From NCBI GenBank assembly GCA_038883655.1, contig JAVZLQ010000004.1, positions 64,001 through 128,000 of the forward strand: 64,000 nucleotides of DNA, read 5' to 3'. Source of the DNA: Candidatus Bathyarchaeia archaeon. GTDB taxonomy: Archaea > Thermoproteota > Bathyarchaeia > Bathyarchaeales > Bathycorpusculaceae. Positions 241-17,985 of this stretch are shown piece by piece. Position numbers and translations under genes: made by a program. Position 1 is the first letter of the stretch, and each line of letters starts with the position of its first letter. Below the pieces are notes generated by a model, which saw nothing but the letters and a program-made list of their open reading frames with translations, made no database searches and had not been told where the DNA came from.

Positions 241-1962
241 ATGACAAAGAATAACCAAACAAAAGTAAAGAAACTTCCACCATGCCGCTCCGCATGCCCA
301 GCCCACGTGAACGTTCAAGGTTACGTCTCGCTGCTCCAAAGAGGCAAATTCAAAGAGGCAGTTGAAATAATCCGCAAGGACATGCCCTTCCCCGCCATCT
401 GCGGACGCGTATGCTTCAGCCCATGTGAAGACGCATGCGCAAGAACAAACGTTGACCAAGCAGTGGCAATACGCGCACTAAAAAGGCTCGTAGCAGACAT
501 AGAAAGGGAGCAAGGACGCGTAAAACCAGAACCAATACCCAAAAAGTACAACGAAAAAGTCGCTATAATAGGTGCTGGACCGGCGGGATTAACAGCAGCC
601 TACGAACTCGCAAAACTTGGTTATCCAGTAACTGTTTTTGAGCGTATGGCTGAACCTGGCGGAATGATGCGCTATTGCATACCCAACTTCCGCCTTGAAA
701 AGTTTGTTGTGGCGAATGAGATAGCCTACATAAAGGATTTGGGCGTGGAAATAAAGACTGGCGTGGAATTTGGAAAGGGTATAACGCTCGAAAGCCTACG
801 TAAGGATGGCTATAAGGCGATTTTCCTTGCAATCGGAACACAGAAAGGCATGAAACTTAACATTCCAGGTGAGGAGTTTGAAGGCGTGATAAACGCTGTT
901 GACTTTTTGAGGGCTATATCTTTGGGCGAACCAATAAAAGTTGGTGAAAGAGTCGCCGTCATAGGCGGTGGAAACACAGCCATAGACGCGGCGAGAACCG
1001 CAAAGAAGCTCGGCGCAAAAGAAGTCATGATATTGTATAGGCGTTCACGCGATGAGATGCCCGCGCTGCCCCATGAAGTAGCAGAGGCAGAAAAGGACGG
1101 CGTTAAATTCTACTTCCTAGTCGCGCCAAAGCAAATAATTGGCGAGAATGGCAGGGTTAAAGCTGTTGAATGCTTGAGAATGCGTCTCGGCGAACCAGAC
1201 GAAAGTGGAAGAAGAAAGCCAATCCCAATAAGCTTTTCAGAGCATCAATACGAGGTTGACATGGTTATACCCGCACTTGGGCAAGTCCTAGAATTGTCAT
1301 GCGTGCCGCCAGAACTTTTAGATAAAGAGGCAAAAGCACCTTCAATAAAAGTTGACTTTACAACAATGGAAACAAGCGTGAAAGGCGTTTTTGCTGGCGG
1401 CGACATGGCTACTGGACCAGCAAGCATCATTGAGGCGGTTGGGGCAGGCAAGAAAGCGGCAGTTTCGATTCACCTTTATCTCCGTGGGCAAGACCCGAGA
1501 AGCGCAAGGGAAGAGAAAATCGAGGAAACGACTTGGGTTAGGAATTGGGGTTACATCAAAAAGAAGGAACGCAGATACGAGCCTCCCTTGGAAAAGCCTC
1601 ACCTAAGCTTTGAAGAGGCTAAAGTTTACCTTGAAAAGCTGAAGCGCGAAGCGGTTTTTGAGGCTTTCCGTTGTTTAGGCTGTGGACCATGCGCGGAATG
1701 CCTAGCAGAACTAGACTTATGCGAGGGGGACAAGGCTGTTGTCGACGAAAACCTATGCGTGGGCTGTAACGTCTGCGCTGTTGTATGTCCGTTTGGGGCG
1801 ATAAAAAAGAACGAGAATGAGATTGCGCAGGTTAATGAGGAGCTTTGTAAGGGATGCGGAATATGTGCTGCGCGGTGTCCGGAACAGGCAATTTCAATGA
1901 AGAAGCTTTCGAATGAACGCATACTGAACCTTGCCTTGCAAGTTGAGGAGGCAAAAGCATGA
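241..1962 (+). CDS. GltD/NfnB/HdrL-like FAD/NADP(H) oxidoreductase with C-terminal 2x[4Fe-4S] domain
   Basis: PCRSACP...ICGRVCFSPCEDAC Fe-S N-terminus, GAGPAG FAD motif, GGGNTAIDAAR + YRRS NADP-type motif, C-terminal CVGCNVCAVVCP / CKGCGICAARCP. ATG at 241 preferred over TTG at 235. Confidence 0.85.
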   Translation: MTKNNQTKVKKLPPCRSACPAHVNVQGYVSLLQRGKFKEAVEIIRKDMPFPAICGRVCFSPCEDACARTNVDQAVAIRALKRLVADIEREQGRVKPEPIPKKYNEKVAIIGAGPAGLTAAYELAKLGYPVTVFERMAEPGGMMRYCIPNFRLEKFVVANEIAYIKDLGVEIKTGVEFGKGITLESLRKDGYKAIFLAIGTQKGMKLNIPGEEFEGVINAVDFLRAISLGEPIKVGERVAVIGGGNTAIDAARTAKKLGAKEVMILYRRSRDEMPALPHEVAEAEKDGVKFYFLVAPKQIIGENGRVKAVECLRMRLGEPDESGRRKPIPISFSEHQYEVDMVIPALGQVLELSCVPPELLDKEAKAPSIKVDFTTMETSVKGVFAGGDMATGPASIIEAVGAGKKAAVSIHLYLRGQDPRSAREEKIEETTWVRNWGYIKKKERRYEPPLEKPHLSFEEAKVYLEKLKREAVFEAFRCLGCGPCAECLAELDLCEGDKAVVDENLCVGCNVCAVVCPFGAIKKNENEIAQVNEELCKGCGICAARCPEQAISMKKLSNERILNLALQVEEAKA

Positions 1963-2702
1963 GTTCCAAAATTGTTTGTTTCATGTGTAATTGGGCTTTC
2001 TGCCTAGAGGAAATGGAAATTCCAAAAAACGTTAACATTGCCCGCGTAATGTGCATCGGAAGGCTTGATCCAACCATAGTTTTGGATGTACTTGCGAAGG
2101 GCGCTGACGGCGTTTTAATGATTGGCTGCAAACCACCAGACTGCCACTACATTGAAGGAAACCTTCAAGCGGAAAGAGCTGTGAAACTTCTAAAAAAGCT
2201 TGTTTCACTTGCTGGTTTGGAGCCGGAACGTGTAAGGCTTGAATGGTACACACCGCTAGAGGGAAAAAGCTTCATTCAACACCTGAAAGAGCTTAACACC
2301 GTTATAACTGCACTTGGAGAATCTCCAATAAAAGCGTCTCCAGAATCAGAACTTATGCTAAACATTTTGGCTGCTAAAAACGCGGCTTCTAACTTTAGGC
2401 TTAGGGTTTTGCTTGGAAGGGAAAGGGAACTCACAGAAAGCGTCAACGTTTACGGAGAAAAAATCTCGCAGGAGGAATTCGACTTTCTGATGGACGAAAT
2501 AGTCAAGGAAGAGTTCCTGCGCCACAAAATCCACTTGTTGACCAAGACCAAGCCGCTTTCGGTTAAAGAGCTGGCTAAAGCGCTTGGAGTCAAGCCCGCA
2601 GATGTTCTCAAACAGATTGTGAACATGCGTAGGAAGAACATGATAACAATAGAACGTTTCATGGAAACAACACCCCTTTACAGGGCGTTGGAGGTGAAGT
2701 AA
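1959..2702 (+). CDS. MvhD-like [2Fe-2S] protein with C-terminal winged-helix-like extension
   Basis: FMCNW, RVMCIGR, GCKPPDCHY MvhD motifs. The C-terminal LSVKELAKALGVKPADVLKQIVNM is HTH-like. Confidence 0.8.
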   Translation: MSSKIVCFMCNWAFCLEEMEIPKNVNIARVMCIGRLDPTIVLDVLAKGADGVLMIGCKPPDCHYIEGNLQAERAVKLLKKLVSLAGLEPERVRLEWYTPLEGKSFIQHLKELNTVITALGESPIKASPESELMLNILAAKNAASNFRLRVLLGRERELTESVNVYGEKISQEEFDFLMDEIVKEEFLRHKIHLLTKTKPLSVKELAKALGVKPADVLKQIVNMRRKNMITIERFMETTPLYRALEVK

Positions 2703-2703
2703 A

Positions 2704-16893: not shown

Positions 16894-17298
16894 ATGTTTG
16901 TCGGAATCGACCATGTGGGCGTCGCCGTAAAAAATCTCGATGAGGCTGTAAAGGTTTACGGTGAAATTTTAGGTTTTAAGCTTGAAGGCATACACGTTCT
17001 AAATGAGCGAAAGGTTAAGGTTGCATTTTTCTCTTCTGGCGGTGAGGGACGAATAGAACTTCTCGAACCTATTGGCAGCGACAGTCCAGTTGCAAAGTTT
17101 CTTGAAAGCCGCGGCGAAGGCATACACCACATCGCAGTTAAAGTCAAAAACATAGAGAAGGCTCTGGAAGAGTTTAAGCGTGAAAACGTGATGCTTGTTG
17201 ATGAGAAGGCACGAGTTGGCGTTGAAGGAGCAAAAATCGCCTTTATTCACCCGAAAAGCACGAGAGGCGTTCTACTAGAGCTTGTAGAAAAGCCTTAG
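16894..17298 (+). CDS. mce: Methylmalonyl-CoA epimerase
   Basis: [42 protein letters not shown] at 16894. Confidence 0.92.
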
Positions 17299-17313
17299 GA
17301 TTCGTATCTGTCC

Positions 17314-17985
17314 ATGAATGTTGACAAGGTCCAAGAAGGTTTACAAACAAAAAAGCTTGGTAAAACAATAATTTTGCTGCGTAGGGTGGATTCCACAAAC
17401 AATTTTGCCAAGAAATTGGCGCGTTATGGTGCCGTTGAAGGCACGGTTGTGGTTGCTGAAGAGCAAACTGCTGGGCGTGGAAGACACGGGCGAAAATGGT
17501 TTTCGCCAAAAGGCGGACTATACTTTTCTGTGATTTTGAGGCCGAAAATGAAGGTTAATAAGACTGTTGGCGTCATTGTGGCTGCTGGTTTGGCTGTTAT
17601 CAAGGTTTTAAGCGAAAATTACGGTTTAAGGGTTGAAGCTAAGTGGCCTAACGATGTTCTGCTTGATGGGAAAAAAGTTTGCGGAATACTCACAGAGGTA
17701 AACAGCACTGGCGAAAATGTGAACTACGTCGTGGTTGGCATAGGCATAAACGTCAATTCCGCAACTGCGAAAGAGTTTCCAGAAGAGCTAAAGCCCATCG
17801 CCACATCGTTAAGGGAGAAGCTGAAAAGGAAAGTAGAGCTTGAACCGCTACTGAAGCAATGTCTGGAGAAGCTTGAGGAAGTTTACGAGGCTTATATCAA
17901 GCTAGGCTTCCAGCCAACACTGGAAGAATGGATGAAATATTCAAGCGATAATACGCGTATTGATTACAAATCAAAATCTAATTAA
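17314..17985 (+). CDS. birA: Biotin-protein ligase (catalytic domain only)
   Basis: DSTN, QTAGRGRHGRKW, KWPND, KVCGIL, GIGINV. Confidence 0.92.
   Translation: MNVDKVQEGLQTKKLGKTIILLRRVDSTNNFAKKLARYGAVEGTVVVAEEQTAGRGRHGRKWFSPKGGLYFSVILRPKMKVNKTVGVIVAAGLAVIKVLSENYGLRVEAKWPNDVLLDGKKVCGILTEVNSTGENVNYVVVGIGINVNSATAKEFPEELKPIATSLREKLKRKVELEPLLKQCLEKLEEVYEAYIKLGFQPTLEEWMKYSSDNTRIDYKSKSN

Follow-up and report, generated by a model that had tools for sequence, protein, structure and literature searches.

The stretch analyzed here, referred to as the window, comprises 64,000 nucleotides from a Candidatus Bathyarchaeia archaeon (GenBank assembly GCA_038883655.1, contig JAVZLQ010000004.1, positions 64,001 to 128,000 of the forward strand). 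Near its start, genes for a hydrogenase–heterodisulfide reductase (Mvh-Hdr) unit face genes for a soluble fumarate reductase resembling thiol:fumarate reductase (TfrAB), with an aldehyde:ferredoxin oxidoreductase (AOR) encoded between them. The assembly under study is designated G000 and the contig that holds the window C4; other G numbers denote genomes of relatives and L numbers individual loci. Genes in the window were identified from a listing of open reading frames (ORFs) and from Pfam and NCBIfam profile scans, and are as follows (scores in bits):

1-134, plus strand: 3' end of a gene (G000:C4:63544-64134) for a protein with ribbon-helix-helix (RHH) and GcvH-like domains (Pfam GCV_H 108.6; RHH_1 20.6, cut-off 20.5).
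235-1962, plus strand: GltD/NfnB-like NAD(P)-binding Fe-S flavoprotein with a C-terminal 2x[4Fe-4S] domain (Pfam Fer4_20, Pyr_redox_2, Fer4_21; NCBIfam PRK12771 524.7, cut-off 516).
1959-2702, plus strand: second MvhD-like protein with a C-terminal tail of ~125 aa (Pfam FlpD 115.9, residues 5-120).
2704-5733, plus strand: tandem (pseudo-dimeric) HdrA, 1009 aa (alignment to 5ODC chain A; NCBIfam HdrA2 1053.5, cut-off 1100).
5730-6167, plus strand: MvhD (Pfam FlpD 191.9; NCBIfam VhuD 152.5, cut-off 215).
6167-6700, plus strand: HdrC (Pfam Fer4_8; TIGR03290 131.7, cut-off 160).
6669-7574, plus strand: HdrB (Pfam CCG, two stretches; TIGR03288 288.2, cut-off 345).
7567-8559, plus strand: MvhG, small subunit of [NiFe] hydrogenase (Pfam Oxidored_q6; VhuG 225, cut-off 450).
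8556-10010, plus strand: MvhA, large subunit of [NiFe] hydrogenase (Pfam NiFeSe_Hases; VhuA 450, cut-off 800).
9911-10528, plus strand: HycI-type hydrogenase maturation protease (TIGR00072 95.1, cut-off 47.45; domain begins at residue 61-64).
10572-11081, minus strand: four-cluster ferredoxin, electron-transfer subunit of AOR (AorA / WOR5-S type; Pfam Fer4_11).
11083-12945, minus strand: catalytic subunit of a tungsten-type AOR (Pfam AFOR_N 252.5, AFOR_C 426.7).
13070-14638, minus strand: TfrB-like protein, 522 aa, an SdhB-type [2Fe-2S] domain and two cluster motifs fused to two CCG (HdrB-like) domains (Pfam Fer2_3, Fer4_8, CCG x2; NCBIfam TfrB, NF004898, 308.5, cut-off 385).
14648-16348, minus strand: TfrA-like fumarate reductase / succinate dehydrogenase flavoprotein (Pfam FAD_binding_2 378.4, Succ_DH_flav_C 150.1; PRK06069 894, cut-off 826; TfrA, NF004900, 506.3, cut-off 718).
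16894-17298, plus strand: methylmalonyl-CoA epimerase, mce (TIGR03081 157.3, cut-off 114.95).
17314-17985, plus strand: biotin-protein ligase, birA, without a repressor domain (TIGR00121 198.9, cut-off 83.1).

Adjacent reading frames from 235 to 10528 mostly overlap or abut, making it likely that they form one transcription unit (unit 1). All six Mvh/Hdr subunit types are encoded together, with their metal-site motifs. HdrB contains the complete C-X(n)-CC-X(n)-C-XX-C motif twice (residues 18 and 161), and the Ni-binding cysteine motifs of MvhA are RICGVCPVAH (residue 59) and DPCFGCATH (residue 451), the latter followed by a 25-residue tail. The true start of the protease probably lies ~150 nt downstream of 9911. 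None of the HdrA2, HdrB, HdrC, VhuA, VhuG, and VhuD models reaches its methanogen equivalog cut-off. An initial annotation of this DNA had named mvhADG-hdrABC, aor with a ferredoxin, a soluble fumarate reductase, mce, and birA. All of these genes are present with strong family matches, but the gene order given for unit 1 is too simple: hdrA is a tandem fusion, and a second mvhD and a gltD-like gene are encoded as well.

The long HdrA aligns with chain A of the solved structure 5ODC (E 2.7e-227) in a tandem organization. Residues 11-375 correspond to 5ODC HdrA 146-511 (the FAD/inserted-ferredoxin core), residues 449-600 to 2-153 (the N-terminal domain), and residues 831-1002 to 477-648 (the end of the core and the C-terminal ferredoxin domain). 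In the fusion, a core that lacks the N- and C-terminal domains precedes a second, full but divergent unit. About 30 of 60 relatives keep this HdrA, at 59-97% identity. Its architecture and the two MvhD-type genes together suggest an asymmetric complex whose two input arms differ. Winged-helix matches to the tail of the second MvhD-like protein were all sub-threshold.

At the upstream edge of the window, the lipoyl-lysine position of the GcvH-like protein is a methionine (ESVKA to ETWMF), and the same protein with the same substitution precedes the gltD-like gene in L129, L052, and L050. We considered this protein as an LbpA-type lipoyl carrier and rejected it, given that the lysine is replaced here and in the three relatives and that an RHH DNA-binding domain is present. 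It may instead be a regulator of the hdr/mvh unit, with the GcvH-like domain as a putative sensor. Further upstream, outside the window, lies an Hdr island with two additional Hdr sets (G000:C4:42097-61160; L014, L015). The first consists of an HdrA::MvhD fusion (788 aa) divergent from an HdrD-like CCG protein, along with a TrxR-like gene, a double-MvhD ferredoxin, and NfnAB-like genes. Behind a 932-aa acyl-CoA synthetase-GNAT fusion comes the second, MvhG-MvhA-HdrA::MvhD (806 aa)-HdrC-HdrB.

The second group, tfrAB-aor-ferredoxin, is encoded on the minus strand and reads toward the hdr/mvh unit, giving a convergent arrangement. In TfrB, the second CCG motif is complete, while the first reads CC-X34-CC-X38-C. 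Across 46 sequences the CCG cysteines are invariant or nearly so, and C60/65/68/80, C153/156/159/163, C206/209/212/216, C290, C325, C365, C414, C450/451, and C489/492 are invariant. TfrA includes the stretches ANRLG and RSHS, which we take to belong to the FAD-histidine and fumarate-site motifs; the histidine of RSHS presumably corresponds to the one that carries covalent FAD in succinate-oxidizing enzymes. An SdhC/D-type anchor (Sdh_cyt) was not found in G000, nor did any of the 61 genomes of the order have a match over the cut-off. The Fe-S subunit with CCG domains and the missing membrane anchor, both pointed out initially, are therefore borne out. Between tfrA and the divergently oriented mce and birA lies a small ORF (16488-16823, 111 aa) whose product has two hydrophobic helices and a strongly basic tail. 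We rejected it as a hidden membrane anchor, as it is poorly conserved and occurs in just 5 of 80 related loci. For mce itself, a start at 16894 is more likely than one at 16732, the ATG at 16894 coming after an AT-rich box. Public records title close relatives of TfrB "succinate dehydrogenase iron-sulfur subunit".

A 124-bp AT-rich spacer with a TTTATA box separates tfrB from aor, and the aor stop overlaps the start of the ferredoxin gene. The best solved matches of the AOR are 9mqx_D, 1aor_A, and 8c0z_A, and those of the ferredoxin are 9mqx_E, 6x6u_B, and 8c0z_C. Because the two proteins best match the partner chains D and E of 9MQX, and also WOR5 L/S and AorB/A, the ferredoxin noted initially beside aor is indeed encoded, but it is the electron-transfer ("wire") subunit of AOR itself. 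As in other two-subunit tungsten AORs (9MQX D/E; WOR5 6X1O/6X6U; AorAB 8C0Z), a catalytic AFOR protein is combined with a four-cluster ferredoxin from overlapping genes. In contrast to those systems, an AorC-type FAD/NAD subunit is not encoded here, and the gene pair sits directly downstream of tfrAB. Any role of AOR alongside the two units is putative. One relative has an iron-type alcohol dehydrogenase gene between tfrB and aor (L116:11638-12807), prompting the idea of a possible acid-to-aldehyde-to-alcohol route fed by succinate.

To see how far this neighborhood is kept, the best 80 of 129 confirmed TfrB loci in public genomes were compared, a sample picked by similarity and biased to close kin. 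Window proteins were mapped on the 80 loci by tblastn, keeping matches that cover at least half of the query, and denominators are the loci with enough flanking sequence. TfrA is adjacent to TfrB in 68/69 loci. AOR follows within 4 kb downstream in 50/59, and its ferredoxin is near TfrB in 44/51. A convergent MvhA lies within 10 kb in 25/43 loci, and the protease in 28/43. Upstream of TfrB, mce is found within 8 kb in 41/53 loci, birA in 42/52, and a biotin carboxylase in 20/60. In L129 an inversion makes the hdr unit co-directional with tfrAB without separating the two, and L076 has tfrAB followed by hdr genes in a different arrangement. The clustering of both halves, flagged initially as the point of interest, thus goes beyond chance and recurs in many genera. 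Genes inserted in the fd-protease or birA-mce gaps of relatives encode a metallo-beta-lactamase-type hydrolase, a GNAT protein, proteins of no assigned function, and a major facilitator superfamily transporter, with no lead to a thiol. Other families of the order have tfrAB without nearby aor and mvh. An HdrD-like CCG protein is encoded directly upstream of tfrA in G038, G041, G051, G057, and G059; tfrAB lies behind fumarase genes in G054 and beside biotin carboxylase and biotin carboxyl carrier protein (BCCP) genes in G042.

Co-occurrence was scored over 60 relatives. Full-length TfrB was counted in 30, including G031, where the match is cut at residue 284. Tandem HdrA was also scored in 30, leaving out G017, at 45% identity, and G047, which has a partial match with a stop. 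Of the 60, 22 have both proteins, 22 have neither, 8 have TfrB alone, and 8 have tandem HdrA alone. Because 8 and 8 genomes hold one alone, neither needs the other. The link between tfr and hdr is frequent and survives rearrangement, yet it is not obligatory.

Relatives of TfrB at 70-94% identity carry Bathyarchaeia or Bathyarchaeota titles, bar one "uncultured archaeon" and one Candidatus Acidoferrum, and the DNA runs that contain the stretch are labelled as hot-springs metagenomes. G000 amounts to 1.42 Mb and is 93% complete and 6.5% contaminated. Twelve of its 14 small contigs (C6-C19) mirror large contigs at 67-74% nucleotide identity, showing that they come from a co-binned related Bathyarchaeon. 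One of them, C6, repeats the layout tfrA-tfrB-aor-fd facing protease-mvhAG-hdrBC-mvhD-hdrA at ~72% nucleotide identity; we rejected it as a paralogous second copy and assign it to the co-binned relative. Absences in G000 alone are weak evidence, since fumarase and carboxyltransferase are missing there yet present in all three congeners. Far from the genes considered here, the window also encodes a 1786-aa subtilase with CARDB and several Ig-like domains (56513-61873, minus strand), in a low-GC stretch (0.36-0.40), and a 1080-aa ORF (51554-54796) without a Pfam match at E 1e-10.

McrA was found in none of the 61 genomes of the order, in agreement with the Mcr-independence proposed at the outset. 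ComA was not found in G000, and it occurs in 3/61 genomes of the order and 0/36 family members. The best match to a ComE-type model in G000 scored 34.8 bits against a cut-off of 221.5, with none over it. As neither Mcr nor ComA or ComE-type genes were found, the substrate of the Hdr part should not be assumed to be CoM-S-S-CoB, the heterodisulfide of coenzymes M and B. Read as reoxidation of CoM and CoB by TfrAB, the initial proposal cannot hold, and CoM is excluded as the thiol since genes for its synthesis were not found. DsrC was rejected as an alternative Hdr substrate, being present in 1/13 genomes and none of the genus. The initial annotation had also recommended a search for Ech and Mbh. 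The Complex1_49kDa family, covering the large subunit of Ech, Mbh, and Nuo, has no member in G000, and Mrp-type antiporter subunits are present in G002 and G003 but not in G000 or G001.

Support for a methylmalonyl-CoA branch, another part of the initial proposal, extends beyond mce and birA. G000 encodes SucCD and, 51 kb beyond the window, a methylmalonyl-CoA mutase with MeaB and CobA. A carboxyltransferase is present in 28/60 relatives, 25 of which also have TfrB and 3 of which do not, while 5 genomes have TfrB without carboxyltransferase; its distance to tfrAB is 8-12 kb in several genomes. An operon in the congener G003 encodes an MmdA-like carboxyltransferase (CT), a 5S/OadA-like subunit, and a separate BCCP. 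In L160 (G003:C3:3001-19000), a second methylmalonyl-CoA mutase, the CT / 5S-like / BCCP operon, and carbon monoxide dehydrogenase/acetyl-CoA synthase (CODH/ACS) stand side by side. The operon is absent from G000 contig C1, though the flanking Ndt and DUF401 genes are there. Biotin carboxylase is absent from all 4 genomes of the genus, and the pump subunit OAD_beta is found in 0/4 of the genus and 1/31 genomes overall. A CT / 5S-like / BCCP set lacking both presumably marks a methylmalonyl-CoA:pyruvate transcarboxylase. We infer a transcarboxylase-type enzyme from this set, with the reservation that the G003 5S-like protein scores 572 bits against the 827 cut-off of the 5S model and passes an OadA model. 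A set of this type in a congener supports entry of succinate into a methylmalonyl-CoA route and would explain birA. In other genera an ATP-dependent biotin carboxylase/BCCP or an acyl-CoA synthetase is encoded next to tfrA. Such neighbors would favor the carboxylating direction, and the direction of the branch may differ between lineages. CdhC of CODH/ACS, a ferredoxin sink, is present in 11/13 genomes and in 3/3 congeners, and in G000 only on the co-binned contig C12.

In the mechanism that we propose, unit 1 would combine a group-3c-type [NiFe] hydrogenase (MvhAG) and MvhD with HdrBC, the tandem HdrA, the second MvhD-like adaptor, and the GltD-like NAD(P)H module. It would act as a flavin-based electron-bifurcating complex drawing electrons from H2 and possibly from NAD(P)H. 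One electron pair would be pushed uphill onto ferredoxin, and the second would run downhill, reducing a disulfide at the CCG site of HdrB, the domain at which disulfide chemistry takes place in the solved methanogen enzyme. Unit 2, a membrane-free TfrAB-type reductase, would oxidize the matching thiol or thiols at its own CCG site and reduce fumarate to succinate. A matching thiol is the most likely donor because the site of electron entry is the same kind of CCG double-cluster domain. Tfr and Hdr share a soluble thiol/disulfide in Methanothermobacter, and the same may be expected here because TfrB and HdrB each end in a CCG double-cluster site. Through SucCD, methylmalonyl-CoA mutase, the neighboring epimerase, and the transcarboxylase-type enzyme of the congeners, succinate would then enter a Wood-Werkman-like route to propionate. 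Because succinate joins this route, the fumarate step would carry catabolic flux. It is a prediction from gene content that the two units share a thiol, that unit 1 bifurcates electrons, that flux runs in the direction given, and that the GltD-like module uses NAD(P)H.

Using textbook potentials at 25 °C, the reaction 2 H2 + fumarate + Fd(ox) -> succinate + Fd(red), where Fd is ferredoxin, yields -69.7 kJ/mol at 1 atm H2 and -24.1 kJ/mol at 10 Pa. The overall reaction is more exergonic at 70 °C, and its reverse is infeasible above ~0.1 Pa H2 (25 °C). The overall conversion suggested initially, H2 and fumarate to succinate and reduced ferredoxin, is therefore exergonic and plausible, whereas CoM/CoB as its carrier is not upheld. 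Taken together, our results lead us to a tentative reading, falling a little short of probable, in which Mvh-Hdr and TfrAB are coupled through a shared thiol to carry out this reaction. A wider version would have the Bathyarchaeia of this family run a CoM/CoB-independent thiol cycle between the CCG sites of TfrAB and tandem HdrA. Reduction of ferredoxin by H2, or NAD(P)H, would then depend on fumarate from a soluble Wood-Werkman-type propionate pathway as the terminal, high-potential acceptor. We regard this wider version as possible but doubtful.

Several observations weigh against such coupling. No candidate for the thiol emerged: ComA is absent from G000 and the 36 family members, no ComE match exceeds the cut-off, DsrC is confined to a single genome, and the GcvH-like protein is without a lipoyl lysine. 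Of the 43 loci with 10 kb of downstream sequence, 18 show no MvhA there. Being convergent, the units are not co-transcribed, and aor-fd lies between them; in relatives the gap also holds 0.05 to ~6 kb of unrelated genes. The eight genomes with TfrB and without tandem HdrA include G038, G041, and G054, which are 95-100% complete, and eight more show the reverse. Related genomes are kin, and the counts given above overstate independence. TfrA and TfrB both score under the curated NCBIfam Tfr equivalog cut-offs listed above, and the flavoprotein passes a general Sdh/Frd subfamily model (PRK06069) instead. The G000 assembly has no fumarase (no class I enzyme, and its sole Lyase_1 protein is PurB), no carboxyltransferase, and no biotin carrier. 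Finally, the two additional Hdr sets within 22 kb upstream in G000 could serve TfrAB instead, and one of them includes the HdrD-like protein encoded beside tfrAB in other families. The coupling of the two halves as it was first put forward is partly supported. They are co-located in many genera, but they form separate convergent units with AOR genes between, and their linkage is not obligatory.

The alternative that survives best, and which we consider unlikely, is that TfrAB is a plain fumarate reductase of a succinate-propionate or reductive tricarboxylic acid cycle branch with some other donor, for example the system of HdrD-like, HdrA::MvhD fusion, and NfnAB-like proteins encoded 30 kb upstream. 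Mvh-Hdr would then serve an unrelated disulfide, and the adjacency would reflect a redox island specific to the lineage and maintained by descent or shared regulation. Consistent with this, an HdrD-like gene stands directly upstream of tfrA in the five genomes of other families named above, and its G000 orthologue is paired with the HdrA::MvhD fusion and with TrxR-like and NfnAB-like genes. The occurrence of TfrB or tandem HdrA alone in 8 and 8 genomes, the convergent orientation, and the variable spacers fit as well, and mce (41/53) and birA (42/52) are tied to tfrAB more often than mvhA is (25/43). However, the adjacency to mvh/hdr outlasts the L129 inversion as well as insertions and is found in many genera, and the co-binned relative keeps it at ~72% nucleotide identity. 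Furthermore, the relevant passages of three reports (PMC9635834, PMC6315080, PMC7282089) describe independent recurrence of a link between Hdr and fumarate reductase in bacteria and other archaea.

Two further alternatives appear improbable to a similar degree. In one, TfrAB docks on tandem HdrA directly or through the MvhD-type adaptors, so that fumarate is the direct high-potential acceptor of bifurcation and no free thiol pool exists. The two non-equivalent halves of tandem HdrA, the two MvhD-type adaptors, and the failure to find thiol-synthesis genes (ComA, ComE-type) all suit direct docking, and a direct complex has been suggested, in the passage of PMC6315080 that treats them, for korABCD-tfrAB-flxABCD-hdrABC clusters. 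It accords less well with the locus having its own HdrBC with intact CCG motifs alongside the CCG domains of TfrB, as expected for two enzymes sharing a soluble substrate, and with genes placed in separate, convergent units. In the other, to which we likewise give little credence, tfrAB-aor-fd is one functional unit. Aldehydes from amino-acid breakdown would pass electrons through AOR and its polyferredoxin subunit to TfrAB and fumarate, or reduced ferredoxin would drive AOR to reduce succinate toward 4-hydroxybutyrate. The four genes do lie on the same strand, AOR within 4 kb after TfrB (50/59 loci) is the tightest link after tfrA, the ferredoxin is a wire subunit of the AorA/WOR5-S type with no AorC-type NAD module encoded here, and L116 adds the iron-type alcohol dehydrogenase. 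Yet the AT-rich spacer with its TTTATA box suggests that aor has its own promoter, the families f2, f3, f6, f7, and f11 have tfrAB without adjacent aor, and transfer from ferredoxin to fumarate would waste ~0.5 V. Operation as a succinate dehydrogenase in propionyl-CoA/propionate oxidation, with Hdr-Mvh confurcating electrons from succinate and ferredoxin to H2, would match the RSHS stretch (given the presumed role of its histidine), the match to the Sdh/Frd rather than the TfrA model, and the ATP-dependent biotin carboxylase and BCCP (20/60 loci) or acyl-CoA synthetase next to tfrA, which point to propionyl-CoA carboxylation, but it is highly improbable, as above ~0.1 Pa H2 reverse bifurcation is endergonic at 25 °C and even more strongly at 70 °C, and succinate oxidation by a -140 mV disulfide costs +33 kJ/mol.

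Coupling through a shared thiol can be set against systems already described. Unit 1 resembles MvhAGD-HdrABC of hydrogenotrophic methanogens (5ODC, 8RVU) in its subunit set, the HdrA alignment, the HdrB CCG motifs, the Ni motifs, and the maturation protease. It differs in the 1009-aa tandem HdrA, the second MvhD-like protein, and the GltD-like module, in subunit scores below the methanogen equivalog cut-offs, and in that no Mcr, ComA, or ComE-type genes were found. Unit 2 resembles the TfrAB thiol:fumarate reductase of Methanothermobacter (Bobik & Wolfe 1989; Heim et al. 1998, as cited in the corresponding passage of PMC8764690). Both are two-subunit soluble enzymes in which SdhB is fused to two CCG domains and a membrane anchor is lacking, and the flavoprotein here shares what we take to be fumarate-site motifs; here, however, the Tfr models score lower and no CoM synthesis genes were found. 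The Bathyarchaeial enzyme is probably catabolic and linked to propionate rather than purely anabolic. In type E succinate:quinone oxidoreductase (SdhABEF), separate sdhE and sdhF genes would be expected, whereas here the CCG domains are fused to SdhB and neither gene stands beside tfrAB.

Precedents also come from archaea without Mcr. For Mnemosynellales, the text on this point proposes Tfr and Hdr without Mcr and describes Tfr as "syntenic to an Hdr-like complex and Eha" (PMC9635834), and for Sifarchaeia a corresponding passage proposes Tfr with Hdr/Mvh (PMC9723677). The logic in those passages is the same, Tfr re-forming the disulfide that an Hdr-type complex reduces. Those lineages lie outside this phylum and the schemes given there still write CoM/CoB, whereas here full Mvh and tandem HdrA are encoded, AOR lies between the units, and CoM genes were not found. 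In bacteria, the "succinate operon" of Pseudoclostridium thermosuccinogenes is presented as having a Flx-Hdr-linked fumarate reductase (PMC7282089, a paper that cites a 2019 preprint on a novel fumarate reductase), and tubeworm symbionts and Thioflavicoccus mobilis are listed with a korABCD-tfrAB-flxABCD-hdrABC cluster (PMC6315080). As described there, these clusters also tie a soluble TfrAB-type reductase to HdrABC, with predicted fumarate-ferredoxin coupling. They are single operons driven by NADH through FlxABCD, in contrast to the two convergent H2-driven units with an NAD(P)H module and aor-fd between them seen here, which are co-directional in one relative (L129). Among the papers searched, we found none that describes a tfr-aor-mvh/hdr neighborhood in Bathyarchaeia. 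The main text of a paper on hot-spring Bathyarchaeia genomics (PMC8407382) has 0 mentions of fumarate, succinate, or methylmalonyl, though its supplements may list the genes.

The locus is a Bathyarchaeial, H2-driven case of an arrangement so far proposed from genomes alone. Locally, it stands out through the tandem HdrA, the second MvhD/GltD-like module, the interposed AOR, and the lysine-less GcvH-like putative regulator. Its significance is tempered in that equivalent schemes are already in print for genomes of Asgard archaea and Archaeoglobi as well as for Flx-Hdr bacteria, and in that the search yielded no candidate thiol. The locus offers a conserved, clonable enzyme pair with which to test one answer to the question of what Mvh-Hdr does in non-methanogenic archaea, namely fumarate as the ultimate acceptor via a non-CoM thiol, and it ties that answer to a propionate-type pathway. 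If the wider, family-level version is true, the physiological role of Hdr-Mvh in a major Mcr-less archaeal group would be named and a new redox cofactor indicated.

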